From IMG/VR virus record IMGVR_UViG_3300032235_000623, positions 44,850-108,849 of that record: a stretch of 64,000 nucleotides of DNA. One strand, written 5' to 3'. Numbering within the stretch: position 1 is the first letter of the stretch; the number at the start of each line of letters is the position of its first letter. Origin of the DNA: a virus. Positions 6,791 through 49,075 of this stretch are shown here, piece after piece. The position numbers and the translations under genes were made by a program. The notes below the pieces were generated by a model. It was not told the origin of the DNA, did not search any database, and saw only the letters and a list, made by a program, of their open reading frames with translations.

Positions 6791-6874
6791 GACATGCGGA
6801 AACTGCTCTCAAGAGCACAATAAAACAATTGATGATGCAGTAGATAATATCTTAGATTCGAGTATAATATAAGA

Positions 6875-7108: not shown

Positions 7109-7231
7109 ATATTCTATTAAAAAAGAACAAAAGTGCTACTACTGCACTGAGGAAGGTCTTTATTTTGACTATGCTGATTATAGATGTATAAGTGTTTGTA
7201 AAAATCATTTAAATATGGAAGCCTCAAGCTA

Positions 7232-9264: not shown

Positions 9265-9267
9265 GAT

Positions 9268-26387: not shown

Positions 26388-26402
26388 GCAAGGGAGCTAA
26401 AT

Positions 26403-31682: not shown

Positions 31683-32963
31683 ATGGCAAGAAAATTTTTG
31701 GTAAGCGTCGACCTAAATAAAAATGAACTTCTAAATGCCAGAATTCAGAATTTAGGTAGTGCCCCATCAAGTCCAGTATCAGGACAAATTTATTTTGATA
31801 CAAACGATAATGTTTTATATTTTTATAACGGAACTTCTTGGGTCCCAGCATCTGGAGCAACAGATGTAATTCAAGAGGTTATAGGTTCTTCTGTTATAGG
31901 AGGAACAGGATTAACAGCCACATATGACAACGTATCTGGCGAAACAACTATTTCTTTAGATGACACAGCTGTAACAACTGGAAGCTATGGTTCAAGCACA
32001 GAGATTCCAACATTTACCGTAGACGCACAAGGTAGACTTACTGCAGCTGGAAGCACAACAATCTCTACAGATTTAGCAGTTTCCGCAGATTCTGGATCAG
32101 ATACTATATCTCTTCTTTCAGAAACCCTAACTATTTCTGGCGGAGAAGGAATTGATACATCTGTTGAGTCTGGAACAATTACAATTTCTGGAGAAGATGC
32201 TTCAGGAACTAATAAGGGTATTGCTAGCTTCAACACAACAGATTTTTCTGTATCTAATGGCCATGTAAGTTTAGCAAAAGACCCAGTAATTACACTTTCT
32301 GGAGATGTTGCTGGTTCTGCAACAATGACAAACCTTGGCGATGTCACAATAACAACAACTGTACAGCCAAACTCAGTAGCACTTGGCACAGATACAACTG
32401 GTAACTATATTGCAACAATTTCAGGAACAGCTAATGAAATTACAGTAACAGGATCAGGATCAGAGTCAGCAGCGGTAACAATTGGATTGCCAGACGACGT
32501 AACAGTTTCTGGAAACTTAACAGTTAATGGTAACCTTGATGTTGCAGGATCAATTAATTCTGTAAATACAACAGAAGTAAATATAGTTGACAATAAGGTT
32601 GTATTAAATTCAAATGTTACAGGTTCTCCTACAGCAAATGCTGGAGTTAGAGTTGAGCGTGGAACATCAACAGATGTTGAACTTCTTTGGAATGAGACAT
32701 CAGATCAGTGGACATTGACAAATGATGGAACTAACTATCATGAAATAACAAGAAAGTACAAGCAAACACTTTCTACATCTGCAACATCATATACTGTTAC
32801 ACACAATCTAGGAACTCAAGATGTTATTGTACAAATTTATGAAGTTGCATCACCATACCAGCAAATTTTTGCTGATGTAGAGCATACAAGCTCAAGCACA
32901 GTAACAGTAAAATTTGCATCTGCTCCAACAGCTGGAGAATATAGAGTAGTTATCATAGGATAA
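31683..32963 (+). CDS. Tail fibre protein
   Basis: Thr/Ser/Gly-rich; VDAQGRLTAA; VTHNLGT C-domain. Confidence 0.7.
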   Translation: MARKFLVSVDLNKNELLNARIQNLGSAPSSPVSGQIYFDTNDNVLYFYNGTSWVPASGATDVIQEVIGSSVIGGTGLTATYDNVSGETTISLDDTAVTTGSYGSSTEIPTFTVDAQGRLTAAGSTTISTDLAVSADSGSDTISLLSETLTISGGEGIDTSVESGTITISGEDASGTNKGIASFNTTDFSVSNGHVSLAKDPVITLSGDVAGSATMTNLGDVTITTTVQPNSVALGTDTTGNYIATISGTANEITVTGSGSESAAVTIGLPDDVTVSGNLTVNGNLDVAGSINSVNTTEVNIVDNKVVLNSNVTGSPTANAGVRVERGTSTDVELLWNETSDQWTLTNDGTNYHEITRKYKQTLSTSATSYTVTHNLGTQDVIVQIYEVASPYQQIFADVEHTSSSTVTVKFASAPTAGEYRVVIIG

Positions 32964-32973
32964 GGTAGTAATA

Positions 32974-33348
32974 ATGGCCAAATTTAAATCATTATTAAAC
33001 TTAGTAACACTTTCAGTAGACCCATCATCTGGGTCTGCTGGAGATGTTTACTTTAATGTAGTTTCAAAAAATTTGAAGATACATAATGGTTTAGTTTGGG
33101 TTGACTTAACACCTAGTTCAAAAGATCCTGCTCCATTCTATATGCACACTCATACTTATGATGGAGATGTTCATACAATTACAATTGATGACATGATTAC
33201 GTTTGACAATGATTTAAATAATGAAGCATCAGTTGTGGAACAAATCCCTGCTATAATTGGATTTGACGGCGGTAGTCCAAATTCAATATACGACGATGTT
33301 TCTTATAAAGAGTTAACATTGTTAGACGGAGGCGAAATTGGCAACTAA
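32974..33348 (+). CDS. Small fibre-associated protein
   Basis: GDVYFN..HTHTYDG..DGG motifs. Confidence 0.55.
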   Translation: MAKFKSLLNLVTLSVDPSSGSAGDVYFNVVSKNLKIHNGLVWVDLTPSSKDPAPFYMHTHTYDGDVHTITIDDMITFDNDLNNEASVVEQIPAIIGFDGGSPNSIYDDVSYKELTLLDGGEIGN

Positions 33349-34555
33349 TTTCCCAACAAGTTTAGACAACTTATCAAATCCAGATGGAACAGACAGCCTA
33401 CAAGGACACGCACAGCTTCATGCTAATGTAAATGATGCAATTGAAGCTATTCAGTCTAAAATCGGAGTAGATGGTTCAGAAGATACAACGTCTTTAGATT
33501 ACAGAGTATCTCAGTTAGAAATATCTCCAGTAGATATTGAGCAAGTACAGGATGCAATTGCAGCAGCATTTGCTGCTGGAGATCAATCACAGGTTACAGT
33601 ATCTTATAATGATGCTTTAAACTCATTAACGCTTTTAGTAAATGCTGCAGAAACAGCAGGATATACAAGCACAGTTAAACACTATGTAAAAAATTCTTCA
33701 GGGTCAACAATAACTGCTGGCACTCCAGTGTATACATCTGGAGCAAATGGTGCAAATATTCTTGTTTCAAAAGCATCTAATGTTGGAGAGTCAACTTCAA
33801 GCAAAACGTTTGGCTTGCTTGCACAAAATTTAGCTCAAAATGGTATTGGATTTGTAGTTACTGAGGGATTACTTTCAGGTCTAAATACTAGCTCAGCCAA
33901 TGCTGGTGATCCAGTATGGCTTGGAGTAAATGGATCTGTTATATACGGGTTATCTAATAAGCCAATAGCTCCAGCACACCTAGTATTTTTAGGTATTGTA
34001 ACTAGAGCACACGCACAAAATGGTCAGATTTTTGTTAAGGTTCAAAATGGATTTGAACTTAACGAATTACACGATGTAGATTTAGATTACTCTAATCCTC
34101 CATCCGACGGAGATGTGCTTGCTTATAATGCAACTACAGGAATGTGGACAAATTCATCTGAATTTGTAACACAAAGTTATGTAGACGATGCTATTTCTAC
34201 AGTAGGAGACTCAGTAGATTCTGTAACAACCTTACTAGGGCTAGAGGGTAACAATGATACTGTTATTACTGGGATAGAAAATGAGACTGAGGTAGATACT
34301 TTTGCAGTTTCAGATTTTAGAACAGTTAAGTATCATTTGCAAATATCAAGAAATTCAGAGTTTTATGTTTCTGATTTCTTGTTGTTAGCAGATGGAACAA
34401 ATGTAAATGTAGTTGAGTCAAACGTAATATCAAACACATCTTCAGATCTTGCAAATGTAAATTTTGAAGAAAATTCAGGTATAATTAGTCTATATGTGAC
34501 ACCTGTTGGATCTGCTGTAACAGCAAGATTTATCAGAATGTCATTAAAGGCTTAA
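33338..34555 (+). CDS. Tail/fibre structural protein
   Basis: MATNFPTSLD..HAQLH; ELNELHDV. Confidence 0.65.
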   Translation: MATNFPTSLDNLSNPDGTDSLQGHAQLHANVNDAIEAIQSKIGVDGSEDTTSLDYRVSQLEISPVDIEQVQDAIAAAFAAGDQSQVTVSYNDALNSLTLLVNAAETAGYTSTVKHYVKNSSGSTITAGTPVYTSGANGANILVSKASNVGESTSSKTFGLLAQNLAQNGIGFVVTEGLLSGLNTSSANAGDPVWLGVNGSVIYGLSNKPIAPAHLVFLGIVTRAHAQNGQIFVKVQNGFELNELHDVDLDYSNPPSDGDVLAYNATTGMWTNSSEFVTQSYVDDAISTVGDSVDSVTTLLGLEGNNDTVITGIENETEVDTFAVSDFRTVKYHLQISRNSEFYVSDFLLLADGTNVNVVESNVISNTSSDLANVNFEENSGIISLYVTPVGSAVTARFIRMSLKA

Positions 34556-34570
34556 TAAGGGGGTTGCACA

Positions 34571-36034
34571 GTGGCAACATTAAATAAAAACTTTAGAATT
34601 AAAAATGGCTTGGTAGTTGAAGGATCAACGGCTACCGTAAATGGTCAAAATATATTAACAGAGACAGGTTCTGATCAATATATTATCAATCTCATTGGTG
34701 GCACAGCAACAGATGCAAATACTCCTAGTGCAGTTGTAAAGCGTGATGCAAATGGTGATTTTGCTGCAGGCACAATTACAGCAGATCTCGCTGGTAATGC
34801 AGACACAGCAACAACACTTGAGACTTCACGTACAATTGAATTAACTGGAGATGTAACAGGCTCTGTTTCATTTGATGGTTCACAAAATGTTCAAATTCAA
34901 GCAGTCATAGACGGGTCGTTTGCTACAAATTCAGAAGTAACATCAGCAATTGAAAATGCAGCAGGCTCATACCTTGATTGGGATGGACAATCTCAGCTTA
35001 ATGTTAATACACAAGAAATTGCTCAGGCATTTGGTCAGACATTTGATTCTTATGGGTCAGCAGATGATGCAGAAACAGCAGCAAACTTATATACAGATGG
35101 CCGTGAAACTGCCATCACGACTGCTTATCAGGACTACGCTGATCAGGCAGAGGTTGATGCTAAGGCATACACAGATGCTCGTGAAACAGCAATTACATCT
35201 GCATACCAGTCATACGCTGATACAGCAGAACAAGATGCTAAGGACTATGCAGATGATTTAATTAATGATGCATCAAACCTTTCAACAGAAGTTTGGTCAG
35301 CATACAAGACAAATACAGAAATTGGTCTTGCAGAACAAAGAGCAAAGGATCACGCAGATGATGCTGTAGCAGGACTTGTTGGTTCAGCTCCAGAGGTTTT
35401 GGATACAATTCAAGAATTGGCAACAGCACTTGAAAATAATCCAGACATTATTGCTGATCTTGAAAATGTTGCAGCAGGTAAGCAAAATACACTAACTCCA
35501 GGCGCAAATATTGATATCTCAAACGATACAATTTCTGTAACTGGACTTGATGCAGCAGACATTTCAGACTTTAACCAAGCAGCACTTTCTGCAACATCAG
35601 CAGCATACGATCCATCTGGTGCAGCAGCAGATGCTCAGACAAACGCTGAGGCAACTGCACAGGCAGCACTTGATGATGTATTAGATGCTACAACAGCATT
35701 TACTGCACTTAATGTAAACGATGAGGCTAAGCAATTTGCTGCAAGCTCAACATCATTAGGGTCAGTAGTTGTAACAGCTTATGAGTGGGCAAAAGCTGAT
35801 TATCGTTCAGCAAAGGCACTTGTAAAGATTGACAACGGAACACATAATGAAATATCAGAAATTCTACTCACACTAGATTCATCAGATAACGTATCAATTA
35901 CAGAATATGCAATTGTAGGTACTAACGGATCTAGAGGAACAATCACAGCAGATGTTTCAGGTTCAAATGTTAGAATTCGTGTAAATCCAGTAAACGATTC
36001 AACAATTAAAATTACTGGAACACTGCTTAAATAA
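34571..36034 (+). CDS. Tail fibre protein
   Basis: VKRDANGDFAAGTITA, APEVLDTIQELA, AKAYTD repeats. Confidence 0.7.
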   Translation: MATLNKNFRIKNGLVVEGSTATVNGQNILTETGSDQYIINLIGGTATDANTPSAVVKRDANGDFAAGTITADLAGNADTATTLETSRTIELTGDVTGSVSFDGSQNVQIQAVIDGSFATNSEVTSAIENAAGSYLDWDGQSQLNVNTQEIAQAFGQTFDSYGSADDAETAANLYTDGRETAITTAYQDYADQAEVDAKAYTDARETAITSAYQSYADTAEQDAKDYADDLINDASNLSTEVWSAYKTNTEIGLAEQRAKDHADDAVAGLVGSAPEVLDTIQELATALENNPDIIADLENVAAGKQNTLTPGANIDISNDTISVTGLDAADISDFNQAALSATSAAYDPSGAAADAQTNAEATAQAALDDVLDATTAFTALNVNDEAKQFAASSTSLGSVVVTAYEWAKADYRSAKALVKIDNGTHNEISEILLTLDSSDNVSITEYAIVGTNGSRGTITADVSGSNVRIRVNPVNDSTIKITGTLLK

Positions 36035-36102
36035 TTAAATAAAAGGCTTGGGGGAGAGCCTAAATCTCCCCCACAAATAAAAATTCGGGGGATAGGGAAC
36101 TC

Positions 36103-36441
36103 GTGACAACAAACAATAAAGATTTTAAAGTTAAGAATGGCCTTGTAGTTGAGGGTAATCAAATAACGCTTGGAGATACTCCAGTAGCCTTCAATACCTC
36201 CACAAGCAAATTAGAAATTTATATTAACGGTTCTTGGCAGCCAATAGCTTTTACATCAGAAATTCCAGATGTTCCAGAAATTACATTTATGGATATCGGA
36301 TTGGCCATTGACTACGATGGAGAACCAGTATATACAGTTCAGGCAAATGGTGTAGTTACCACAGCCACAAAATTCGCAGATGGGGGAACTCCATCAACAT
36401 CTTCTTTCGGTATTACCTTTGATTCAGGTACTATCGGTTAA
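36103..36441 (+). CDS. Small fibre-associated protein
   Basis: N-terminus paralogous to the 34571 gene (KDFKVKNGLVVEG). Confidence 0.6.
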   Translation: MTTNNKDFKVKNGLVVEGNQITLGDTPVAFNTSTSKLEIYINGSWQPIAFTSEIPDVPEITFMDIGLAIDYDGEPVYTVQANGVVTTATKFADGGTPSTSSFGITFDSGTIG

Positions 36442-36471
36442 GAAGATAAAATGATATAATAAGGAGTAATT

Positions 36472-38826
36472 ATGGCAACAGTAAGAATTCAATTAAGAAG
36501 AGGCACAGCAGCAGAATGGACAGCTGCAAATCCTGTATTGGCCGCAGGCGAAATGGGTCTGGAGACAGACACAGGCGATTTTAAATTTGGTGATGGCTCA
36601 TCAGCCTGGGGTGCTTTAAGCTATTCTCTAGGCAATGCAATTGATGACTATATCCCGCTTTCAGAAAAGGGTAATCCAGATGGAGTTGCAACACTTAACT
36701 CACAAGGATTAATTCCTGTAGAGCAGTTGCCAGCAGCTGCAGCCCTAGAAGTTGAGGTAGCATCTTCAATTTCAGATCACAATTCAGATACCACAAACGT
36801 ACACGGTATTACTGATACATCTATTCTTGTAACAACAACAGGAAATCAAACTTTAACCTCTAAGAGCTTGACATCACCAGCTCTTACAGGAACACCAACT
36901 GCCCCTACTGCAAATGTTGGAACAGACACAACTCAAATTGCAACAACAGCATTCGTTCAGGATGCAATTGAGGCAGTTGTTGGAGCAGCACCAGAAGCAT
37001 TGAACACCTTAGCAGAAATTGCTACATCCCTAAATGATGACGCAGATCTAGCTGGTACACTAACCACATCAATTGGTACAAAGGTCTCAAAGGCTGGAGA
37101 TACAATGAGCGGGGTTCTTGATATGGGCTCTAACAAGGTAACAAACCTTGGAACACCTACATCAAATTTTGATGCTGCAAGCAAGTATTATGTAGATTCA
37201 AGAGTAGCTGGAGATGTCGGCGACCACAATGATTTAACAACAAATGTACATGGTATTGGAGACACAGCTGATCTAGTTTTGACATCAGACTCTAGACTAT
37301 CAGACGAAAGAACACCACTTAATGATTCTGTAAGCACTGCAAAGCTAAGCAATAATGCAGTTGCAACAGCAAAGATTGAAAATGGCGCAGTTTCAGCAGA
37401 TAAAATTGGAACAGATGCCGTAACAGAAGTTAAGATAATTAATGGAGCAGTTACAGCAGCAAAGATTGCTGACTACGCAGTTACAACAGAAAAAATTGCT
37501 GATTTAAATGTAACAGAGTCAAAACTTAATACAGGATCTGTAACTGAAGACAAAATTGCAACAGATGCAGTAACAGAATTAAAGATTGCTGACGGTTCAG
37601 TAACATCTGCTAAAATTGCATCAAGCGGAGTAGAGACAGCAAATATTGCTGGTCTAGCCGTAACAGATGCAAAGATTGCTGACGATGCAGTTACAACAGC
37701 AAAAATTGCTGATTCAAACGTAACAGAGTCAAAGATTAATACAGGAGCAGTAACTGAAGGTAAAATTGGAGCTGGCGCAGTAACAGAATTAAAGATTGCA
37801 GATGGCTCAGTAACCTCAGCAAAGATTGCTAATGGAACAATTGTCGATGGAGACATTTCAACAGTAGCAGCAATTGCTCAGTCAAAGATTGATGGACTTA
37901 CATCTGATCTTGCTGCCAAGGCGCTAGATTCAGATTTAGATGCACACACATCAGCAACAACTTCAGTTCATGGCATTGCTGACACTTCAGTACTTGCAAC
38001 AGATTCTGAAGTAGCTGCTGCACAGACTGCAGCGCAAAATTTTGCAACATCTGCAATCTCAACACACAATTCAGACACAACAAATGTGCATGGAATAGTT
38101 GATACGAGCAAGCTTGTTACAACAGATGCACAGTCTACAACTTTAGATGGAGCATTAACAGTTCAGGGAGACCTTACTGTTAATGGTACAACATTTAGCG
38201 CATCTGCAACATCTATTACAATTGAAGATAATATGGTTCAGCTTGCTCATCAAAATTCAGCAAATACAGTAGACTTAGGTCTTGTAGTTGCATATAACGA
38301 TGGAACAGCTAAGCATGCAGGTATTGTAAGAGATGTATCTGACTCTAAGTGGAAGCTTTTCAAGGGTGTTACAACAGAGCCATCAACTACAGTTGACTTT
38401 ACACAAGGATCACTCGATGACCTTGCAGTAGCAGGACTTACTGCAACAACAGTAACACCATCATCTGGTGTAGTGTTTACAGATGGAACACAGACAAAAG
38501 CTGGAGTACCATCAATAACACCAATAACAGAAAAGACATCAAACTATACACTTTCAAGTCTTTCTGAAAGAGACACTCTTATTGAGGTAAACCACACAGG
38601 AGGATCTGCCGTAACTATCACAGTTCCAGCTGACTCTTCAGTAAATTACCCAGTAGGAACATCCATAGATATTTTAAGAACAAATACTGGAGAAGTAACA
38701 ATTGCTGGCTCAGGTGCTACAATTAATGCTACACCAGGCTTAAAGTTAAGAGCTCAGTGGTCAAGCGCAACTCTATTTAAGAGAGCAGCAAACACATGGG
38801 TATTATTCGGAGATCTAAAGGCATAA
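36472..38826 (+). CDS. Long tail fibre with Mtd-N/hyaluronidase-N domain and VTxAKIA repeats
   Basis: IQLRRGTAAEW..NPVLAAGEMGLETDT; about 18 ten-residue repeats; C-terminal LRAQWSSATL..WVLFGDL. Confidence 0.8.
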   Translation: MATVRIQLRRGTAAEWTAANPVLAAGEMGLETDTGDFKFGDGSSAWGALSYSLGNAIDDYIPLSEKGNPDGVATLNSQGLIPVEQLPAAAALEVEVASSISDHNSDTTNVHGITDTSILVTTTGNQTLTSKSLTSPALTGTPTAPTANVGTDTTQIATTAFVQDAIEAVVGAAPEALNTLAEIATSLNDDADLAGTLTTSIGTKVSKAGDTMSGVLDMGSNKVTNLGTPTSNFDAASKYYVDSRVAGDVGDHNDLTTNVHGIGDTADLVLTSDSRLSDERTPLNDSVSTAKLSNNAVATAKIENGAVSADKIGTDAVTEVKIINGAVTAAKIADYAVTTEKIADLNVTESKLNTGSVTEDKIATDAVTELKIADGSVTSAKIASSGVETANIAGLAVTDAKIADDAVTTAKIADSNVTESKINTGAVTEGKIGAGAVTELKIADGSVTSAKIANGTIVDGDISTVAAIAQSKIDGLTSDLAAKALDSDLDAHTSATTSVHGIADTSVLATDSEVAAAQTAAQNFATSAISTHNSDTTNVHGIVDTSKLVTTDAQSTTLDGALTVQGDLTVNGTTFSASATSITIEDNMVQLAHQNSANTVDLGLVVAYNDGTAKHAGIVRDVSDSKWKLFKGVTTEPSTTVDFTQGSLDDLAVAGLTATTVTPSSGVVFTDGTQTKAGVPSITPITEKTSNYTLSSLSERDTLIEVNHTGGSAVTITVPADSSVNYPVGTSIDILRTNTGEVTIAGSGATINATPGLKLRAQWSSATLFKRAANTWVLFGDLKA

Positions 38827-38836
38827 GGAGCAAACA

Positions 38837-40198
38837 ATGGCAATTAATAAAAGATCGGGTACAGGTTCTTCAGCACAAGATAACTTTATTGGACCAAATC
38901 CAGTAACAGGTCTAACAGCTACAAATGTAGGGTCTGGTAGATCATACAACGATGGCAGAATTGACTTATCTTGGACAAATCCTACAAATGGCAATACGCC
39001 AACAGGATATAAGATTATTAGAGGCGGTACAGAAATTGCAACTGTTTCTCATCCAAATAATACTTATTCAAATACAGGCTTATCGTCTAATACAGGCTAC
39101 TCTTATGTAGTTCGTGCTTACGATGATTATGCTACATCTGCTGATTCAAATACAGCAACAGCAACCGCAACAACAGTTCCAGCTACAATGAGCTCTCCAA
39201 CTGCCACCGCAGGAGTAGACAAAGATACGCTTTCTTGGTCAGCGCCTGCAGATGGTGGATCAGCCATCACGCTATATAGATGGACATCAAGCGACGGAAA
39301 GTCTGGAACATTTTCAGCAGGCTCAACATCTGGTGATGTATCTCAAGAAGCAAATACGGCTCAAACATATCAGATTAGAGCAGAGAATCTAAATGGAGCA
39401 GGAGTATATTCAGGAAATTCAAATTCTGTAACTACACAGGCACCAAGCTTCTTCGGACCTCCTAGCTTCTTCTCGCCTCCAGGATTCTTCGGACCACCAA
39501 ACTTCTTCGGTCCTCCAGGATTCTTCGGACCACCAAACTTCTTTGGTCCTCCAAGCTTCTTCGGTCCTCCAGGATTCTTCGGTCCTCCAGGATTCTTCGG
39601 TCCTCCAGGATTCTTCGGTCCTCCAGGATTCTTCGCACCACCATCATTCTATAAGAGCGTTGGAATCAATACTCTTCTTAGAACACCTACAGGAATGATT
39701 TCTGCAGGACAAATTGAGGTGGGAGATGAAGTTATAGGATTGCGTATCCCAGGGATACCAGATAACTTCTGGCTTCTAGATGACGGATCAGGTGGAACAT
39801 ATTCTGATTATGTTATTACTCAAGAACAGATTGATAATGCAGAAGAAACTGTTGTTACTGTTCAAGGAAAAGCTCTTCACGAGAATTCTGGAGCAGTAGT
39901 AGTAAATGGTGATATTTATACACTTCATCACTATATCTTGGCTAAAAGAGATAATGATATTAGAGTCTTAAACGTTTCTGATTTAGTCAATACAGATTTA
40001 GTTTATAATTATCAGACAAAAGATTTTGTTGCTATAGAGTCTCTTGAAACAAACTCTGAGATAACAATTCAGTCATATTCTATAAACGTAGAGCCTTGGG
40101 ACTTCTACTTTACAGAAAACGGTCTAACTTTTGACATGCAAGCTCTTTCAGAGCATCTGTTTGGATCAAACGATCCAGATGGCCCTGGCCCCCTATAA
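38837..40198 (+). CDS. Fn3-domain virion protein with (PPxFFG)12 repeat and C-terminal Hint domain
   Basis: Two Fn3 domains (LSW..YKI..Y.VRAY; [19 protein letters not shown]); repeat; Hint blocks. Confidence 0.8.
39440..39655 (+). repeat. 12 x 18-bp coding tandem repeat (PP[G/S/N]FF[G/S/A])
   Basis: CCTCCAGGATTCTTCGGT and variants. Confidence 0.95.
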
Positions 40199-40207
40199 TC
40201 AATATAG

Positions 40208-40750
40208 GTGAAATTTAAAATAACCAGTACTGGTGAGGAGATAGAGAAATCTATCTCCTATCAGTCTTTTCCAGATGAACTTTATAAAGAAGGAATTTGG
40301 GGTCATTTTGCATTTATAGAAAATAGAGAAATGAATATACGGGTAATATGTTCTGCTTATAATAATGATAGATATTTACCAGGTACTGTTGTTGTTTCTA
40401 ATAAAATATTTAATGATTTCCCTATTGCTCAGAGTGCTTGGAATATAAATAATAAAATTAGCCGTATGTACGTAGACCCATTTTATAGAAGCAAAAAAGT
40501 TGCAACATATAGTGTTATAACAAATGACATGTTGGCTAGAAAAATGGGTTACGAGATATGGTCCAACATATATGGAGAAAGAGGCGGAACCCTTGCGGGA
40601 GACCAACTATATAATAGAATATACGAGCTAGGTTTTGAGAATGTGAAAGTAGATATAGATCCTAATGACATTTTCCAGTATAGAAATTTTTCTCATCCAA
40701 TACACTACATAGATAAGAGGCCAGTATACGATGAATCAACTTTACAGTAA
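40208..40750 (+). CDS. Putative GNAT-family acyltransferase
   Basis: MYVDPFYRSKKVAT resembles motif A; TLAGDQLY. Confidence 0.5.
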   Translation: MKFKITSTGEEIEKSISYQSFPDELYKEGIWGHFAFIENREMNIRVICSAYNNDRYLPGTVVVSNKIFNDFPIAQSAWNINNKISRMYVDPFYRSKKVATYSVITNDMLARKMGYEIWSNIYGERGGTLAGDQLYNRIYELGFENVKVDIDPNDIFQYRNFSHPIHYIDKRPVYDESTLQ

Positions 40751-41303
40751 AACAAAGTTTATAAAAAAGAATATTGATATTGATTTTGATTTAGAAGACA
40801 TTAAAAATATGTCTTTTAAAAAAGATGAGTTGTTTTTTGTTAAAGATGGCGACCTTAACAAGGAAAATGAAATTATCCATAAATCAAAAAATATATTTAC
40901 AACATACTCTAGCAGCTCATATAGTTTATATAAAGGTATATCTTATTTGTTAAGAGAAGCTTGTCTTTTGTATGACATAAATAAAGATGTACAGGACTAT
41001 ATGATCTACGGCAAGATTTCAAAGTATGGGGATTATAATAAAGGAATATGGTATGATTTCCCAGGAATTAATATACCATACCTTCACGGATTCTTTTTCT
41101 TTGACTCCAGCTATGAGGTAAACTTTAAGAATCAAAATAATTTAGTTACAGAAAAAGTAGAAGGCAATACAGTTATTATTAACAAGCCAACTGATTTAAT
41201 AAATATTAAATCAGAAAAAGACTCAGAAATTATTGAGTTCTATATAGTTCCAAACGATATGCTTAAACATAATGAACCAGGTGTATGGGTTCCAATTCTA
41301 TAG
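40731..41303 (+). CDS. Degenerate 2OG-Fe(II)-oxygenase-like protein
   Basis: DSBH-like layout but WYD instead of HxD. Confidence 0.4.
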   Translation: MNQLYSKTKFIKKNIDIDFDLEDIKNMSFKKDELFFVKDGDLNKENEIIHKSKNIFTTYSSSSYSLYKGISYLLREACLLYDINKDVQDYMIYGKISKYGDYNKGIWYDFPGINIPYLHGFFFFDSSYEVNFKNQNNLVTEKVEGNTVIINKPTDLINIKSEKDSEIIEFYIVPNDMLKHNEPGVWVPIL

Positions 41304-41339
41304 TAGAAATGATATAATATACAAAAGAAAAGAGGCAGT

Positions 41340-42038
41340 ATGTTAGAAAATGCAGAATTTTTAGCCATGGGCGTTGTTGTCTATAGAAATGCTTTTAAGG
41401 ACAGCGCAGAATATATTCAGAGAATTGAGAGTGCTCTTGGTTCAGAAGAAAATACAAAGTACGGTTGGAAGCCAGGTTATACTGGGTACGGAGCAAAAAA
41501 TCTAAATTATAGAGACTGTGTAGATTTTAAGATTAAATATAATCAGGATGGCTCACTTAGTGCACATATGGACTGTGTTCAAAAAGATGACTTAACTGAT
41601 ATTGATAGAGATTTAATTAGAATTTGGGAAGATGCATATTACGCACAACTTGGTCCAGTAGACGACTATCGTAATATGTTTGGGCTTGCACCATTGAAGT
41701 ATTGGGAATCATTTAATTTTATTAAGTATGGTCCAGGACAGCACTTCCAGGTTCACTCAGATCATGGATATTCATATACATGTGTGCTTTCTTCAGTAGG
41801 ATATCTGAATGATGATTATGAGGGCGGAGAGTTGTTCTTTGACAAGCTAAATCTTAAGATTAAGCCAAAGGCTGGAGATCTTTATCTTTTCCCATCATCA
41901 TATGTATATTCACATGCAGCAATGCCAGTTACATCAGGGACAAAGTACTCTATAGTAACGATGTTAGATTACTTAGAAACAGCACACACTCCAGAATACA
42001 GGGATCTAGAGTCTAGATATTCTAAAAGCCTATTGTAA
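41340..42038 (+). CDS. Prolyl-4-hydroxylase-like 2OG-Fe(II) oxygenase
   Basis: HSD..YLNDDYEGGEL..HAA..GTK. Confidence 0.9.
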   Translation: MLENAEFLAMGVVVYRNAFKDSAEYIQRIESALGSEENTKYGWKPGYTGYGAKNLNYRDCVDFKIKYNQDGSLSAHMDCVQKDDLTDIDRDLIRIWEDAYYAQLGPVDDYRNMFGLAPLKYWESFNFIKYGPGQHFQVHSDHGYSYTCVLSSVGYLNDDYEGGELFFDKLNLKIKPKAGDLYLFPSSYVYSHAAMPVTSGTKYSIVTMLDYLETAHTPEYRDLESRYSKSLL

Positions 42039-42733
42039 TGTATTCAATTACAGGGTATCAGATATCTGAATCTGCTGATATCTATCCTTCCCCAGTAAAA
42101 AGAGACTGGATGGATAGTACTCATGATAGGCATGCCTATAATTGTTTTCCAGTAACCATAACAAATTCTTTAGGCTGGAGCGTATCATTTCCAGAAGAGA
42201 TATCATTTATTTGGGATGGAATATCTGATAGCTCATCCGAACACGTCAAGGTGCTATCTGGAGAGAAATATGTGTCTACAAGACGTGCAAATGGCACTAT
42301 AAGCTTTAATGCAGGACTTGGATTTCAAACAGATTCAAATTTAAGTCTTTTATGCATACCAACTCCAAATTTGTTTACAAGAGGCGCACAGTGTTTTACA
42401 ACATTAATCAGCACTTCTTTTTTTCATGGAGATTTTCCAATTGTATGGAAAATTACTGAGCCTATGCACAAGATCACCATTCCAGCAAATACGCCAATTG
42501 CAAATATCATTCCAATATCTTTAACTGAGTTGCAAGGTTCAGAAATTAATTTTAAAAGTCTAGAAGAAATGCCTCCAAGCAAATGTGATGACGCAACAAC
42601 AATGAAGGCTATAAACGATATAGTTTCTTCTGGAAATTGGACAAATTTTTATAGGGATGCAGTAGATGCTTGTGGCAATTCCATTGGGGAGCATGAAGTA
42701 AAGTCGATAAGATTAAGAGTTAATAATGCCTAA
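42038..42733 (+). CDS. DUF6065-family protein
   Basis: RDWMD..HAYNCFP..NSLGW. Confidence 0.7.
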   Translation: MYSITGYQISESADIYPSPVKRDWMDSTHDRHAYNCFPVTITNSLGWSVSFPEEISFIWDGISDSSSEHVKVLSGEKYVSTRRANGTISFNAGLGFQTDSNLSLLCIPTPNLFTRGAQCFTTLISTSFFHGDFPIVWKITEPMHKITIPANTPIANIIPISLTELQGSEINFKSLEEMPPSKCDDATTMKAINDIVSSGNWTNFYRDAVDACGNSIGEHEVKSIRLRVNNA

Positions 42734-43439
42734 AATAACATTTCATTCAAATAAAGTATATAATCAACCAGGAGATCAACTAAATCCACAGCCAGCAAAA
42801 AAAGCTGTCCCCCAGTGGTTTTCTGAATCTAGCAGATATTGGTTTCCAGAAAATAAAGATTCTCTTTCGTTTAAAGCATGCCCAGCTTTAGTTGACGCAT
42901 TTTTATGCGGGTATGTTTTAAAAACACCATGCGATATTTATTTTTATAAAGAGTCGTACTCAGACGTATTTAAACATACAGATACATTTAAAGTTGTAAA
43001 AGAGCCAGGGTATGATGATTTTTGTTGTTCAAGACCAGACATGCAAGGTTTTCCAAAGCCCCATGGATTTGATAAACACTTCCACTGGTTTCCTAATTGG
43101 ATGCCAGGCCTAGAGCCTGGTTATAGTGCTTTATATGTACATCCACTAAATCGTTTCGATCTACCGTTCACTACCATCTCTGGTATAATTGATAACGATA
43201 AGATGGATACTCCTGGCTTAATGCCATTTTTCTTAAAAGAAGGTTTTGAGGGGTTGATTCCAAAAGGAACTCCCTTTGTTCAAATAATTCCTTTCAAGAG
43301 AGAAGACTGGGAGTCAGAAGAAAAGATGTACTCAATAGAAGAGATTTACGAAAGACATAATTATCAAGCAAATAAATTTAGAGTCCCAGAAGGCGGGGCT
43401 TATAAGAAAAAAGTTTGGTCAAGAAAGAGGTACGATTAA
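42726..43439 (+). CDS. DUF6065-like protein
   Basis: VPQWF..FKACP..GY; PKGTPFVQIIPFKREDW. Confidence 0.6.
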   Translation: MPKITFHSNKVYNQPGDQLNPQPAKKAVPQWFSESSRYWFPENKDSLSFKACPALVDAFLCGYVLKTPCDIYFYKESYSDVFKHTDTFKVVKEPGYDDFCCSRPDMQGFPKPHGFDKHFHWFPNWMPGLEPGYSALYVHPLNRFDLPFTTISGIIDNDKMDTPGLMPFFLKEGFEGLIPKGTPFVQIIPFKREDWESEEKMYSIEEIYERHNYQANKFRVPEGGAYKKKVWSRKRYD

Positions 43440-44158
43440 TGAATATGAAGGTTTGGGATACAAGCGGTAACCTAGCAAACTATAATGCAAAATCTATAAC
43501 TCCATCAGGATTTTTTGGAACTTCAGATAAAAATATTGTAGAGGTTGAAAACTTTATAACAGAAGAAGAAAACGAAGTGTACCTAGAATTTGCAAGAAAA
43601 AATTCTTCTTTTGACGATACTCCAACTGAGTTTAATGAAAATGGAAATGTTATATATGATGAAAGACCGTGGGTTAACAGAGTAGCTACTGGGGATAACT
43701 TATTAAAAAATGGAGCACACGTCATACCAGTTTTAACAAAAATGGTAGAGCGTTTTCAAAAGGTTATTGAGGAGTTCTTTGAAGTAGAGGTAATACCAAC
43801 TGGACCAGCTATTGTTAGATGGCCAGTAAATGCTAGACAAGAGCCTCATGCTGATAAAGAGTTGCATGAAGGTCCAGATGCAGGTAAGCCAAATTCTTTC
43901 CCATGGTATGATCTTGGAACTGTATTTTATTTTAATGATGACTATGAAGGCGGAGAATTATACTTTCCAAAACAAGGAATTGAGTTCAAGCCAAAAGCAC
44001 GAGCTGTTTATTTCTTCCCAGGTGATATGAATTATATACATGGAGTTAGACCAATAACTAAGGGTTGTAGGTATACTGCTCCATATTTTTGGACGATTAC
44101 AAAGTTGCCAGAAAAGTATAACGGCCCAAAGGAGTTTAAGTATGAGCCAAATAACTAA
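43439..44158 (+). CDS. Prolyl-4-hydroxylase-like 2OG-Fe(II) oxygenase
   Basis: HAD..YFNDDYEGGELYF..HGV..GCR. Confidence 0.9.
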   Translation: MNMKVWDTSGNLANYNAKSITPSGFFGTSDKNIVEVENFITEEENEVYLEFARKNSSFDDTPTEFNENGNVIYDERPWVNRVATGDNLLKNGAHVIPVLTKMVERFQKVIEEFFEVEVIPTGPAIVRWPVNARQEPHADKELHEGPDAGKPNSFPWYDLGTVFYFNDDYEGGELYFPKQGIEFKPKARAVYFFPGDMNYIHGVRPITKGCRYTAPYFWTITKLPEKYNGPKEFKYEPNN

Positions 44159-44861
44159 GCATAAAGAAGAATGTTTTACCATTGAAAACTTTTTAACAGA
44201 GCATGAGTGCAAAGCAATAATAGCTTATACAGAGTGGCTTGTAGCAAACAATATACTTGAGTGGAACCAAATCTCATTCTATGATTCATATGCTATGGGT
44301 TTTTGGCCATATGACGATAATCTTGAATACTTTGGATTACCAAAAAATTATTTCCATGATGTTTTAAAATTAAAAATTAAAGATGCTTGTGAAAATGTTC
44401 TAGGTAAAGATGTAGCAGAAGTTAGCTATCATGCCCAAAAATGGTTGCCAGGGGCATACGCATCTTTTCATTCAGACAACTCTGACGAAGATGGTAACCC
44501 AACAGAATTTGAAAGAAGTAAGTATGCTGCATTTATATATTTAAATGAAGACTTCTCTGGAGGTTATTTAAACTTTAAGCATCATGATGTTCATATAGAT
44601 CCAAAACAAGGCATGTTAGCTATATTTGCTGGAGGACATACTAATGAGCATGAGGTCACTAAGGTTCACGGTGGAACAAGATATACAATTGGATCTTTTT
44701 GGGATAACGCTGATATAGAGTACACTGAAGAGCAGATTAAAGAGCGTGAAGAAAGACTAAAAAAGACTAGAGCGGATCAAGATGAAATGTATAGAAAGTG
44801 GCAAGAAGAAAAAGAAAATGGCATTGTCCAAGAGTACACTGGAAAGTATGGTGAGAAGTGA
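44142..44861 (+). CDS. Prolyl-4-hydroxylase-like 2OG-Fe(II) oxygenase
   Basis: HSD..YLNEDFSGG..HEV..GTR. Confidence 0.9.
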   Translation: MSQITKHKEECFTIENFLTEHECKAIIAYTEWLVANNILEWNQISFYDSYAMGFWPYDDNLEYFGLPKNYFHDVLKLKIKDACENVLGKDVAEVSYHAQKWLPGAYASFHSDNSDEDGNPTEFERSKYAAFIYLNEDFSGGYLNFKHHDVHIDPKQGMLAIFAGGHTNEHEVTKVHGGTRYTIGSFWDNADIEYTEEQIKEREERLKKTRADQDEMYRKWQEEKENGIVQEYTGKYGEK

Positions 44862-45715
44862 ATAAGATAGAGATCTATCCAAGGGTGGTTGTTTATAAAA
44901 ACACATTGCCAAGATGGAAAGAGTATATAGAATTATTGAAAAGATCAGAGTCTGAGCCACCAAGATATTATTTCCAAGACTGGGAAGACTGGTATGGATT
45001 TGGCAGAATGATGAATCTATCAATGAAGCATCCAGGTGTGCCTTACGAAGTAAACTCTGATGATGAATATGCATTGCTTCAAAAAGATTTTCTGCAAGAT
45101 GTAACTAATGCATACTACGCAGCAAGCGCAGACTACGTACAGACATATGGTATATCTTTACCTAATTGGGTAAATAATGGAATATCTATTTGCAAGTATT
45201 GGGAAAGCCCAAAACAAAATACAATGGCAATGCATTATCACACAGACTATGTTGGTGCTAATGCATCCGCCCCAGGCAAAAAATTTGCTATAACGTGCAC
45301 AATTTATATAAATGACGACTACGATGGTGGCGGATTATCGTTTTTGAGAGAAGATACTGGAGACGTTATTGACTATAAGCCAGAAGCTGGCGACATAGTT
45401 GTGTTCCCATCAGGAGACCCAGTAACTGGGGCATCTCATTATTTTCACGGTGTTGATAGAGTCGATAATGGCGAAAAGTACTTCATTAGATGCTTTTGGT
45501 CTTATGAGTTTGAAGGCACAAAAGAGTGGCACGAAGGTGTAGAAAAATATGGTCAGGATGTATGGGAAGAAATGCAGCTTGAAAATATGAAGCAGGAGAT
45601 AAAGTCTGGTAAGTGGCATAGGTATCTAGTCATGCCTGGGGAAGAGGATCCAAAAATAGAAAAATCTACTCCATTCTTTTTAAGGAGCAATGATGCTTAT
45701 AAAAAGATTAGATGA
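44858..45715 (+). CDS. Prolyl-4-hydroxylase-like 2OG-Fe(II) oxygenase
   Basis: HTD..YINDDYDGG..HGV..GEK. Confidence 0.9.
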   Translation: MNKIEIYPRVVVYKNTLPRWKEYIELLKRSESEPPRYYFQDWEDWYGFGRMMNLSMKHPGVPYEVNSDDEYALLQKDFLQDVTNAYYAASADYVQTYGISLPNWVNNGISICKYWESPKQNTMAMHYHTDYVGANASAPGKKFAITCTIYINDDYDGGGLSFLREDTGDVIDYKPEAGDIVVFPSGDPVTGASHYFHGVDRVDNGEKYFIRCFWSYEFEGTKEWHEGVEKYGQDVWEEMQLENMKQEIKSGKWHRYLVMPGEEDPKIEKSTPFFLRSNDAYKKIR

Positions 45716-46307
45716 AAATATTGTTTACTATGAGAATGTTTTAGAAAATCCATATTCTTTTTTAGAAAAAATTGAAGAGCTAGATTCAAGTAATTCAAAC
45801 ATATCGCATTTAAGTAAGTGGGAAAAGTGGAGTGCTAGTAATTCAGATAAGCAGTATGGAATTACTAAAAATGGAACATTTTCTAATATGCAGTATGTTA
45901 CAGAAGCAGACATAGAGACATCTTTTATATCTTATAAGATAAAAGCAATAACAGACCTATGTTTTGCAAACTATAGACACCTTACTGGAGCAGAAATGCT
46001 AAAGCTGCCAGATTATTTTAGTATTAGAAAATATGATACTGGTGCAGATATGGGCAGACATGTTGACTCTGAAGATCCAACCGATAAGTCTCACCCAGTT
46101 GTTTCTGGAGTGCTTTATCTAAATGATGATTATGAAGGCGGAGAAATTTATTTTCCAGAACAGAATATAAAGATTAAGCCTTCTGCGGGAAGCATGATAA
46201 TGTTTCCTTCCTATCGTCCATATTTTCATCATCCGTTAGAGATAACTAACGGTAATAAATACATGGTACCATTCTTCTGGTACCCATTAGAAACGGTTTG
46301 GGAATAA
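45690..46307 (+). CDS. Prolyl-4-hydroxylase-like 2OG-Fe(II) oxygenase
   Basis: HVD..YLNDDYEGGEI..HHP..GNK. Confidence 0.9.
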   Translation: MMLIKRLDENIVYYENVLENPYSFLEKIEELDSSNSNISHLSKWEKWSASNSDKQYGITKNGTFSNMQYVTEADIETSFISYKIKAITDLCFANYRHLTGAEMLKLPDYFSIRKYDTGADMGRHVDSEDPTDKSHPVVSGVLYLNDDYEGGEIYFPEQNIKIKPSAGSMIMFPSYRPYFHHPLEITNGNKYMVPFFWYPLETVWE

Positions 46308-46314
46308 ATGAATA

Positions 46315-46974
46315 ATGAAAGCAAAACAAAATTTTTGGTCAGCGCTATACGAAAGGTCACAGCCTAAAATGATGTACTTACCTAACATACTAGATGACAA
46401 ATGTGTTTATTTTAGAAATACAATTTCAGAGCCACATAAACTAATAGAGTTTATTGAAGAGTGCGAAAACGATAAGTCTACTCATAAATATATATCAAAC
46501 TGGGCGAGTCTTAGTAACGGAGTAGAATTTAAAAAGTTTTTATTAGAAGATGGTGAAATGTCTGAAAGAATGAAGCAGAAAGTTCTATATATTTACAATA
46601 GCTTTCAGGCAGGAATTAATTATTGCAAAGAACACTATTCTAATTTTGCAATGAAGGATACAACATCAACAAAACCACTGTATCTTTTTAAGTCAAAGCC
46701 ATTAAGTAGTGTTCAAAGAGATCAAGAGTATAGTATTCCTTCAGGCCCAGAGTCTGTGTCAGTTTACCTAATGATGAATACAGAGGCAGATGGTAGAGCT
46801 TTTTGCGTAAACAAAGAAAGAAGCATCTACATATATCCTGAGCCTTGGAGCATAATTATGATTCCAGATAATCTTTCTCATTCAGAAGGAATTAATGCCA
46901 ATAATGATTTGTATTACTTAAAAACAAAGTTTGAGTTAGGTCCAGAAAAGCTGCAATGCAGTAATCTGCTATAA
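46315..46974 (+). CDS. Degenerate 2OG-Fe(II) oxygenase paralog
   Basis: N-terminus resembles the 45690 gene; HxD missing. Confidence 0.45.
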   Translation: MKAKQNFWSALYERSQPKMMYLPNILDDKCVYFRNTISEPHKLIEFIEECENDKSTHKYISNWASLSNGVEFKKFLLEDGEMSERMKQKVLYIYNSFQAGINYCKEHYSNFAMKDTTSTKPLYLFKSKPLSSVQRDQEYSIPSGPESVSVYLMMNTEADGRAFCVNKERSIYIYPEPWSIIMIPDNLSHSEGINANNDLYYLKTKFELGPEKLQCSNLL

Positions 46975-46981
46975 TAAAACT

Positions 46982-48664
46982 ATGTCTTATTCCAGAAACG
47001 TATTAAAAGATTACCCTATTGGGTTTTGGGAGCTTTCCGAAAATGCCTTAGACGGCTCTGGCTGCGGTAATGACGCAGTGGTTTCTGGAACGCATTATAT
47101 AGATGGATTTAGCCTTCATCCTTCAATTGGTGGGTATACAAGAATTAAAGGAAACTCTTATGTTTCCATGCCAATAGATAAAGATTACTATTCGGATACA
47201 AACCTTCCACCAATTGCAAACTCTTCAAGCTCCAGAAATGAATTTTCTTTAGAGCTTTGGTTTAAAGCAGAAGATAACCTTATTAGTGAAACTCCTTTAT
47301 TCGCAGATGTAAATGCAGATACGGGTATATTCTACGAGCAGGGAAATATTATTTTTAAGGTTGAAGGAGAATCTGTAGAGTATACGCTAACAGAGATCAA
47401 CAGAGCACATCATGTAGTTGGTGTATATTCTGGCAATGATATATCAATATTCATCAATGGCGATATTGCAGCAAATAAAATTTTAAATAGCTTCAGGTTT
47501 AGCTCTGAAGATGTTGATTTTCAGGTTGGTCCAGTAGTAGATAGCAATGCCTCATTTCTAGTAAATGGGGTAGCTGTATATAGATATGCACTTAGCCTAA
47601 ATCAAATATATGATCATTTTTATCAGGTAAACAATATTCCGCCAATTCAAATTGCTGATCCAGACAACGGATTTATATTCCAGATCAAGAATAGCGCAAG
47701 TGGGAAAAGGTTTACATTTGATTACCCAATAAATAAAAATTGGTCAGACGTTGTAGAAAGCCCTGTAGAATTTAATGATGCTAAAGGGTATGTAGAACTA
47801 GGCAAAGCGGACGGGGAAGTCTCTAAGGAGCTCCTAGACGTTATATCAGTACCTTCTATTGAAGAGTACGAACACTCTATTATAGAGTGGGTTGGAGATA
47901 ATGGGGTATCCGTAAAGATATCACAAAATAATGTTGACTTTTATGACTGTATAAATGGAATGCCTTTACCAATTCAAGATAATACTAAATCTATTATTTA
48001 TTTAAAGATAATATTCCAATCATCTAATGCACAAAGATTTAATCCAAGACTATATTCATTATCCATTTCTTTCTTTAATGGATTAAGGCTGTACGCATCT
48101 AATAGTGCTGACTACATATCCTCTTCTTCTACGGGAGGAAGTGACTTTGGTTTCACGTGGAACAATTGGCCAATTCTTTCAAGATATAGCCTTAATGGTT
48201 TAAGGGCAGGATCAGAGTTTAGCATTTATACAGATAAGGACGTATATTCCCTTGAGATGTTCTACACACCAACCGAATTGTCTGAGAGCTCATTATTTGA
48301 CCAGCTATCCTGGAACGGGGCGGGAGCCCTAAGCAAATCAAACATCCTAGCCCTATATATCAATGGAGAAGATAAGACATCAGAAACCTCAGTATCTGGC
48401 TTATTTATACCTGGAGAGATATATCACGTAGTAGCAGTATTAAATAATTCAATGACAGGGGAGATTGTCTTCAATGGGGACAATGAGGCCCTATATCAAT
48501 ACATTACGATATATGAGAGCCAATTGAGTTCAGGTACTGCCCAGGCTCATTATGAGTTGTATACTAATAGTGTCTCTACTATTGCCGACGGCTCGTCACT
48601 TGCACTGACAGAAAACTCTGTAAATTACTACAATAATGATTGGGTTGTAATACAAAGCATATAA
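46982..48664 (+). CDS. LamG/concanavalin-A-like domain virion protein
   Basis: PIGFWELSE, FSLELWF, HHVVGVY, VAVYRYALS. Confidence 0.75.
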   Translation: MSYSRNVLKDYPIGFWELSENALDGSGCGNDAVVSGTHYIDGFSLHPSIGGYTRIKGNSYVSMPIDKDYYSDTNLPPIANSSSSRNEFSLELWFKAEDNLISETPLFADVNADTGIFYEQGNIIFKVEGESVEYTLTEINRAHHVVGVYSGNDISIFINGDIAANKILNSFRFSSEDVDFQVGPVVDSNASFLVNGVAVYRYALSLNQIYDHFYQVNNIPPIQIADPDNGFIFQIKNSASGKRFTFDYPINKNWSDVVESPVEFNDAKGYVELGKADGEVSKELLDVISVPSIEEYEHSIIEWVGDNGVSVKISQNNVDFYDCINGMPLPIQDNTKSIIYLKIIFQSSNAQRFNPRLYSLSISFFNGLRLYASNSADYISSSSTGGSDFGFTWNNWPILSRYSLNGLRAGSEFSIYTDKDVYSLEMFYTPTELSESSLFDQLSWNGAGALSKSNILALYINGEDKTSETSVSGLFIPGEIYHVVAVLNNSMTGEIVFNGDNEALYQYITIYESQLSSGTAQAHYELYTNSVSTIADGSSLALTENSVNYYNNDWVVIQSI

Positions 48665-48727
48665 TTTTGTCATTAGGTGTGACAAGATATGGACTTTAGC
48701 ACTATAAAGTGGTAGAATAGTCAACAT

Positions 48728-49075
48728 ATGGATATCAAAAGAACTGGTTTTAAAATCAATGATCACGAGACAACCCTCGGAATATATGTCTGGGAAATGC
48801 CAGATGGACGCTGGATTGGCGACGATGACGGAAACTTTCTTTCTATAACTGCAAAAGAAGGCAATAGAGAAAGAATGAATTTGTTAGCAGATGCTGTTAG
48901 GTCTTACGGAATCTACGAAGGCAAGCCAAAGTTCCTTTCTGGCAGAAGAAAGATTGATGACGAAGAATTTGAGTATCAGCAACAAAGATTAAGATGGGGC
49001 CTAACTCCAGATCCTTTGGACATCGGAGTTTATAAAGATGAAATGAAGGCTCTAAAGAATAGCGGTGGAAAATGA
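48728..49075 (+). CDS. Hypothetical protein upstream of portal
   Basis: ATGA overlap with portal. Confidence 0.6.
   Translation: MDIKRTGFKINDHETTLGIYVWEMPDGRWIGDDDGNFLSITAKEGNRERMNLLADAVRSYGIYEGKPKFLSGRRKIDDEEFEYQQQRLRWGLTPDPLDIGVYKDEMKALKNSGGK

Follow-up and report, generated by a model that had tools for sequence, protein, structure and literature searches.

The final 64 kb of the viral record IMGVR_UViG_3300032235_000623 (IMG/VR, 108,849 bp, estimated completeness 91%; this whole stretch of 64,000 nucleotides is hereafter the window) encode a protein in which two Fn3-like domains are followed by twelve PPxFF-type hexapeptides and a Hint domain. Immediately downstream lie ten tightly packed genes, among them five that encode intact prolyl 4-hydroxylase (P4H)-type Fe(II)/2-oxoglutarate (2OG) oxygenases. 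This adjacency is conserved across a large family of freshwater phages, and the enzyme set changes with the type of repeat. The pattern points to modification of the repeat protein by these enzymes but is no proof of it. We tentatively favour a reading, to which we give a little less than an even chance, in which the genes form a co-inherited module that matures one fibre-associated protein: the oxygenases would hydroxylate the repeat, and the Hint domain would autocleave. An initial annotation of the window had described the arrangement and proposed that the repeat is a dedicated substrate, modified at several positions; its observation is confirmed, and its interpretation is partly supported, with modification of Phe and Asn, scaffolding by the inactive paralogs, and an adhesive tip staying conjectural.

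We rank this reading first because the genome has a sole Pro-rich repeat, because the neighbouring enzymes belong to the collagen-type hydroxylase branch, because two oxygenase families track two repeat chemistries, and because one gene of the array, gB, is decayed where the repeat is of the PP type.

The repeat protein and its Hint domain

Pfam passes the first Fn3 domain of the repeat protein (residues 38–105, E 1.2e-6). Over the second Fn3-like domain it returns weak PKD matches only, and this domain is recognized by its resemblance to the first (BLASTP E 0.007, with an LSW..P..GG motif). Each of the hexapeptides that follow is made up of two prolines, a small residue, two aromatic residues, and another small residue; at the DNA level they appear as an 18-bp tandem array (39449–39635, 10.4 copies, 82% matches). 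A Pfam scan of the single window sequence missed the C-terminal Hint domain, which is detected by profile comparison. The architecture given in the initial annotation (two Fn3 domains, twelve hexapeptides, one Hint domain) is upheld by these results.

Apart from the PPxFF repeat, neither the fibre module nor the rest of the genome, as represented by the 91%-complete record, showed a Pro-rich repeat. The other fibre proteins contain 1–3% Pro, and no Gly-X-Y runs were found in those of the module. In the window protein the last eight triplets of the repeat are consecutive, perfect Gly-X-Y (Gly-Pro-Pro / Gly-Phe-Phe), and the Pfam Collagen model matches weakly (E 1.9e-4, 21.6 bits, below the cut-off of 27.2), a likeness to collagen and its P4H. 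Unlike collagen, however, the repeat has Ser, Asn or Ala at the Gly position in its earlier units, and the 10-residue PPFFPPxFFx units of relatives break the three-residue period. Because this period is not kept across the family, we rejected a collagen triple helix as a family-wide structure. We likewise rejected the label 'RiPP-like' (RiPP, ribosomally synthesized and post-translationally modified peptide) that the initial annotation had attached to the repeat: at 453 aa and with several domains, the candidate substrate is no short precursor of leader plus core, and Pfam shows no RRE/PqqD-type domain (RRE, RiPP recognition element) in the ten genes.

A database search for relatives of the repeat protein listed 282, whose repeats come in two flavours, a PP type (PPxFF, often mixed with PPFF) and an FTPFG/FGAFG type (hereafter, FTPFG type). 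Neither tblastn of the repeat protein nor megablast of the region gave a match to cultured phages. We searched 185,579 prokaryote genomes for three PPxFFx units in a row and obtained 31 stretches. Only two of these are real coding repeats, and both lie on contigs of the same phage family in Bacteroidota metagenome-assembled genomes (MAGs; loci L119 and L124). The prokaryote genomes therefore offer no independent lineage for a test of co-occurrence.

A profile of 16 C-terminal domains, the window's included, matches inteins and a bacterial intein-like (BIL) domain in the PDB (9hth, 1.7e-7; 2lwy, 1.7e-4; and the gp41-1 and RadA inteins). In the window protein, Ser274 is aligned with Cys1 of the relatives, the TxxH motif is kept as T-L-H-H, and the domain ends in LTFD, with Phe-Asp at the His-Asn position, before a 20-aa tail. 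Many relatives run from the repeat directly into Cys-Ile/Val-(Asp/Glu)-x-x-Thr and end in VHNK, the classical Hint block A and block G signatures. Judged by these motifs, the window's C-terminal domain is a real Hint domain, Hedgehog/BIL-like and non-splicing; it is not an intein, because Phe-Asp stands where His-Asn is required. The behaviour of Hedgehog and BIL domains leads us to expect cleavage, or transfer, between Lys273 and Ser274. In relatives that have no Hint domain, the protein ends a few residues past the repeat. Such Hint-less proteins (e.g., L022:10001–10834 and L035:4774–5754) share a C-terminus that is Gly-rich and carries [FIL]-R-x-Y at the very end, which may be a docking motif.

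The next gene, gA, had been annotated as GNAT-like, and this likeness is weak. An ortholog matches Pfam Acetyltransf_1 at E 1.2e-3, below the cut-off, and gA has an Atlas feature score of 0.95 to viral GNAT clusters; a Pfam scan of the window's own copy gave no match, and a PDB profile search with gA gave nothing significant. The gene is present only with Hint domains that start Lys-Ser-[Val/Leu]-Gly, the 'KS[VL]G' Ser1 type (L009–L020, L024, L030, and L038). L038 has gA despite its differing repeat type, and all Cys1-type and Hint-less loci are without it. The gA product may be a helper in resolving the less reactive oxy-ester, or in acylating the exposed C-terminal Lys.

Ten genes downstream of the repeat gene

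The open reading frame (ORF) positions reported for the window were confirmed (Table 1), and the computed intergenic gaps bear out the tightly packed ten-gene run after the repeat gene: from 38837 to the portal gene, successive gaps are 9, −20, 36, −1, −8, −25, −17, −4, −26, 7, 7, 63, and −4 bases. The packing of the array is operon-like, with overlaps or 7–36-base gaps, and all of it lies on one strand with the fibre and head genes.

Table 1. Positions of the repeat gene, the ten-gene array, and the flanking genes within the window
Feature	Position	Strand	Evidence or details
Mtd_N-type fibre gene	36472..38826	+	Pfam Mtd_N E 2.2e-16; tail-fibre PHROGs; directly upstream of the repeat gene
Repeat-protein precursor, 453 aa	38837..40198	+	Conserved N-terminal peptide, two Fn3-like domains, repeat, Hint domain, 20-aa tail
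Twelve hexapeptide units (PPxFF plus small residue)	39440..39655	+	Residues 202–273
Hint domain	39656..40135	+	Residues 274–433; Ser1, TxxH, LTFD end; intein/BIL profile matches
gA, 180 aa, weakly GNAT-like	40208..40750	+	Ortholog Acetyltransf_1 match; Atlas features
gB, 190 aa, 2OG-oxygenase (PHD/P4H-like) fold, metal ligands lost	40731..41303	+	Predicted model
ox1, intact P4H-type 2OG-Fe(II) oxygenase	41340..42038	+	H139 D141 H192 K202; PF13640 E 1.4e-15
duf1, DUF6065	42038..42733	+	PF19541 E 4.8e-31, 108.5 bits
duf2, distant duf1/DUF6065 relative, dUTPase-like fold	42726..43439	+	hhalign 90%; phrog_7084; AlphaFold2 model
ox2, intact oxygenase	43415..44158	+	PF13640; H145 D147 H209 R219
ox3, intact oxygenase	44142..44861	+	PF13640; H110 D112 H170 R180
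ox4, intact oxygenase	44858..45715	+	PF13640; H128 D130 H197 K207
ox5, intact oxygenase	45690..46307	+	PF13640; H124 D126 H180 K190
gC, dead ox5 paralog	46315..46974	+	hhalign 98.4% to ox5; triad lost
LamG-domain protein, 560 aa	46982..48664	+	Downstream module boundary; followed by a 115-aa gene, then the portal gene

All five oxygenases score above the gathering cut-off of PF13640 (28.7–58.5 bits; cut-off 27). The His and Asp of the HxD motif are kept in 26–36 orthologs of each, and a basic residue (Lys or Arg) stands 10 residues past the distal His in every one, so the five intact enzymes with HxD..H..R/K motifs in the initial annotation are confirmed. The best PDB match of ox1 is the collagen-type P4H of Bacillus anthracis (7.6e-7). 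This enzyme is also the best solved relative of ox5, and for both genes it is followed by the lysyl hydroxylase LH3, PiuC, P3H1, and the PBCV-1 P4H. Similarity to these solved prolyl and lysyl hydroxylases makes hydroxylation of peptidyl proline a candidate activity of these P4H-type enzymes. A complex prediction for ox1 with residues 196–285 of the repeat protein scored 0.01, which is not evidence either way.

Of the two degenerate paralogs reported alongside the intact enzymes, gC stands as a dead relative of ox5. For gB the assignment holds at the level of the fold: its predicted model (pLDDT 84) matches 3bvc (Z 13.4), a Pseudomonas P4H (11.8), and PHD2 (~11.4) over ~155 aligned residues. 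Pfam and PDB profile searches found no sequence link between gB and 2OG enzymes, and a Pfam scan of all 15 members of the gB family gave no consistent family.

A dead oxygenase paralog, gC in the window and likewise an ox5-like gene in FTPFG-clade phages, lies directly upstream of a large pre-portal protein in both the PP and the FTPFG clades (46315–48664 in the window; L023:7213–11423; L032:16669–20912), and this large protein has 560 aa with a LamG domain in the window phage and ~1200 aa in the FTPFG clade. The arrangement suggests a conserved, non-enzymatic pairing. As a hint that the pre-portal protein, whether LamG-bearing or giant, has an oxygenase-fold partner in both clades, it also raises the question of whether the oxygenases modify other phage proteins (another fibre protein, the LamG protein, head proteins) and the repeat protein is a mere neighbour; the position of the array inside the late structural block would agree. 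We consider this improbable, since the other fibre proteins are without Pro-rich or Gly-X-Y repeats, and since the fibre genes are common to both clades and the oxygenases are not.

Two genes of the array had been annotated as DUF6065-type. For duf1 the Pfam match settles the assignment (Table 1), and duf2 is linked to the family by profile alignment and phrog_7084 only. In PP-type loci duf1 always lies between ox1 and ox2, and it is without the GIIDxD motif of duf2. The AlphaFold2 model of duf2 (pLDDT 86) matches dUTPases (Z 9–11, rmsd 2.5–3.3, 112–132 residues), and its GIIDxD, an invariant Gln, and a C-terminal R..GG.Y are like dUTPase motifs III–V, as judged by eye. PDB profile searches with duf1 and duf2 gave nothing significant, tblastn of duf1 gave no match in cultured phages, and a literature search found no paper naming DUF6065. 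Relatives of duf2 occur in FTPFG-clade phages and in ~50 tailed viruses of haloarchaea, and their neighbour in each instance is a class II ribonucleotide reductase (RNR) gene (e.g., L116, Halophage HF1 48119–49003; L029:10457–11203). The initial annotation had counted both genes among the modifying type. Given that duf2, the sole one modelled, has a predicted dUTPase fold, and that its relatives adjoin RNR genes in other viruses, we do not, on the evidence so far, count the DUF6065 genes among protein-modifying enzymes.

The same features raise the alternative of a nucleotide or DNA modification pathway, in which the substrates of the oxygenases and of the dUTPase-fold DUF6065 proteins would be deoxynucleotides or DNA. 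A search of the 91%-complete genome with PF00692 found nothing, leaving it without a canonical dUTPase, and this would agree with such a role, as would the resemblance of GIIDxD to dUTPase motif III and the position of duf2 relatives next to RNR in FTPFG-clade phages and the haloarchaeal virus HF1. We nevertheless hold this pathway to be very improbable: the oxygenases are of the P4H family and not TET/JBP or AlkB, their solved relatives hydroxylate proteins, and duf1, the member always embedded in the array, is without the Asp-containing motif.

In the maturation of a fibre-associated protein that we favour, the 453-aa precursor would be produced at the same time as the products of the fibre and head genes nearby. 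The five oxygenases encoded just downstream would hydroxylate residues of the repeat, with Pro the likeliest target; because five orthologs are conserved separately, differing positions or stereochemistries would be implied. The Hint domain would then carry out an N-to-O acyl shift between Lys273 and Ser274, and the resulting ester would be resolved by water or another nucleophile. Cleavage would free an Fn3-repeat protein with its repeat at the C-terminus, which is the layout of the natural Hint-less relatives. The identity of the substrate, the chemistry, the cleavage, and a location in the virion are all parts of what we propose here.

Repeat type and enzyme set in related phages

We compared two sets of loci, ~70 distinct ones seeded from three differing repeat proteins and 77 that had duf1 as the seed; profiles made from the window's genes served for annotation, and trees were constructed with FastTree. 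All of the complete, distinct PP-type loci (35/35) carry 4–6 intact P4H-type oxygenases and duf1 directly downstream of the repeat gene, in near-fixed order. In the reverse direction, a repeat ORF lies no more than 4.5 kb upstream in each of the 50 duf1-seeded loci with enough upstream DNA. The co-occurrence and adjacency of repeat, oxygenase, and DUF6065 genes, which the initial annotation had put forward as a check, are thus seen from both seeds.

The FTPFG-type loci (n = 8) present a different enzyme set. Intact PF13640 genes are absent from the interval in seven, and the eighth, L038, has two. Seven of the eight carry 2–3 gB paralogs, and 18 of the 20 full-length gB copies in those seven have both [WFY]H[DE]H and GHPH; both motifs are lost in all 14 gB copies from PP loci. 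The HxH...H of FTPFG-clade gB resembles what we take to be the pattern of PF13759-type oxygenases, and Atlas features agree with it. L038 combines an FTPFG repeat with two intact gB copies and only two P4H-type genes, and on the portal tree it is nested among PP phages. A further contrast lies within the PP type, where duf2 is present exactly in those loci whose repeat is without PPFF tetrapeptide units (21 versus 15 loci, no exception), with 2–3 changes on the tree.

Repeat type and presence of the array shift in concert at 3–4 places (at least 3) on the Fn3-region tree. The tree of the small pre-portal protein and portal N-terminus has two repeat-type changes, the main FTPFG phages forming one long-branched clade and L038 being the second case. 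The two trees disagree, and the genomes are therefore mosaic; the repeat and the downstream genes stay together while the flanks reshuffle. This fits a functional module and follows also from physical linkage.

Several observations weigh against a maturation module. The co-variation test is weak because it rests on only 2–3 independent transitions of physically linked genes, just two on the portal tree, and no sign test is significant with so few pairs (p 0.25 for the changes on the Fn3 tree); block recombination alone could keep a linked repeat and array together. In one FTPFG-repeat locus, L029, the interval lacks both gB and oxygenases. PP-clade genomes have 8–12 PF13640 genes, 3–6 of them far from the repeat gene, and two 70-kb FTPFG-clade contigs (65% complete) have 0–1, so the oxygenases may be a lineage trait. 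The window itself contains further 2OG genes (9938–10489, 25830–26387, and 26403–26996). The nearest cultured-phage homologs of ox1 are cyanomyovirus 2OG genes, which stand beside primase and helicase genes and without a known repeat of this kind, and the dUTPase fold predicted for duf2 is not known to tailor proteins. Moreover, because the same interval holds RNR and cobalamin adenosyltransferase genes in FTPFG-clade phages, it behaves partly as an accessory-gene island.

These points lead to the main rival, that the 2OG oxygenases and DUF6065 genes are auxiliary and accreted at a module boundary. Their targets would be small molecules or proteins of the host, the role commonly assumed for the many 2OG-Fe(II) oxygenases of cyanophages, and they would adjoin the repeat gene for historical reasons. 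Such an origin is possible, if on balance doubtful. The distant PF13640 genes of PP-clade genomes lie in other clusters, the cyanomyovirus homologs belong to replication modules, and the window also has a cluster of P450, luciferase-like monooxygenase, short-chain dehydrogenase, and 2OG genes at 6086–10489; the pre-portal interval of Streptomyces phage BillNye and the FTPFG-clade phages holds RNR, cobalamin adenosyltransferase, or endolysin genes; and the published view of such oxygenases is metabolic or repair-related (PMC3037559). Accessory genes are usually sporadic, however, like the P450 (1/5 genomes), whereas here five one-to-one orthologs keep a fixed order across phages whose repeat proteins share 33–40% identity. 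The all-or-none pattern also tracks the repeat type, including the nested L038 and the split between active and decayed gB, which argues against a purely historical adjacency.

Genome setting, known systems, and significance

The window stretch is found in freshwater and aquatic metagenomes from several studies. Its portal protein is 57% identical to the portals of ~127-kb Streptomyces siphophages, and its head block is the same as theirs; in those of the BillNye type the order is RNR, endolysin, large protein, small protein, portal, protease, and capsid. Between the RNR gene (28573–30507) and the pre-portal LamG protein, the window phage has extra fibre-like genes (31683–40198) and the ten-gene array. 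The contigs L119 and L124 of this phage family were binned into Bacteroidia/Bacteroidetes MAGs, and the phage has a G+C content of 37%; these are a weak hint of a Bacteroidota host, although the head genes resemble those of Streptomyces phages.

In many relatives' loci the order of Mtd-type gene and repeat gene is present twice, the pair being duplicated. Ten of them (L022, L025, L027, L028, L031, L039, L041, L042, L044, and L049) encode, at about 1–4 kb in the locus, a second repeat protein of ~800 aa that is alike in N-terminus, repeat flavour, and C-terminal end. It too has an Mtd-like fibre gene before it, and the repeat type is equal for both copies in a genome.

Other genes of the window lie outside the array, all on the + strand. 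A redox cluster at 6086–10489 comprises a short-chain dehydrogenase, a cytochrome P450 (Pfam E 8.8e-62), a luciferase-like monooxygenase, a 226-aa protein, and a PF13640 oxygenase. Phage-encoded P450 is unusual, and among five related genomes this one occurs only in the closest relative. A subtilase-family S8 peptidase is encoded at 1387–2337, an S-adenosylmethionine-dependent methyltransferase at 24334–25089, and two adjacent PF13640 oxygenases at 25830–26996. An open frame exceeding 2014 aa (57958–63999) runs off the end of the window; since it comes after the head and tail genes, it presumably encodes the tape measure protein.

Parts of the proposed module have precedents. The P4H of Bacillus anthracis acts on (Pro-Pro-Gly)n, and that of the Chlorella virus PBCV-1 reportedly acts on viral proline-rich repeats. 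As in those cases, small PF13640-type P4Hs are encoded in the window alongside Pro-rich repeats of the same genome. The window differs in having five conserved paralogs instead of one, in a candidate substrate that joins an aromatic PPxFF repeat to Fn3 and Hint domains, and in its tailed-phage setting. Like Hedgehog and BIL proteins, the repeat protein has its Hint domain directly after the cargo, with a position-1 nucleophile and TxxH, without a splicing-competent C-terminal junction, and with predicted N-terminal cleavage or transfer; unlike them, this lineage has Ser for Cys and no sterol-recognition region, and the cargo is a phage Fn3-repeat protein.

Tailspikes and fibres of the endosialidase and T5 L-shaped-fibre types carry a self-cleaving C-terminal intramolecular chaperone with the Ser-Lys dyad of peptidase S74. 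The Hint domain is comparable in being C-terminal in a fibre-type protein and in its predicted self-removal once folding or assembly is complete, but the fold and chemistry are unrelated, an acyl shift standing in place of the S74 dyad. The 2OG-Fe(II) oxygenases of T4-like cyanophages belong to the same Pfam and PHROG families (phrog_61) as those of the window, with several paralogs per genome (PMC3037559). In cyanophages the 2OG genes are scattered, for instance beside primase and helicase, whereas the window has a fixed array of five orthologs that tracks the repeat type.

Taken singly, the components are known: viruses have P4Hs alongside Pro-rich substrates of their own, Hedgehog and BIL domains process themselves, and fibres carry self-cleaving chaperone domains. 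Our literature search found no paper on their combination in a tailed phage or on paired repeat/oxygenase variants, and no report of phage fibres that contain hydroxyproline or a Hint domain. A bolder version of the proposal, which we regard as speculative and unlikely in its entirety, is that this freshwater phage family has a dedicated pathway of structural-protein tailoring with two interchangeable chemistries, PPxFF repeats with a P4H-type battery of five and FTPFG repeats with PF13759-like enzymes, after which the modified aromatic tail is either freed by autocleavage of a Hedgehog-like Hint domain or passed covalently by it to another virion or host molecule.

Phage genomes, aquatic ones above all, are full of 2OG-Fe(II) oxygenase genes whose substrates have been unexplained since they were first catalogued (PMC3037559). 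The module is a concrete case in which a candidate substrate lies beside a fixed enzyme set and natural variants change substrate and enzymes together. Should the maturation reading prove false, the array would be one of auxiliary genes, and a phage protein that combines such a repeat with a Hint domain would remain unusual. If instead it is true, tailed phages hydroxylate their own structural proteins, as is so far known only for giant viruses, and Hedgehog-type autoprocessing joins phage fibre maturation. The two-chemistry pathway, if it exists, would provide the first known substrate for the long-unexplained 2OG-Fe(II) oxygenases of phages.

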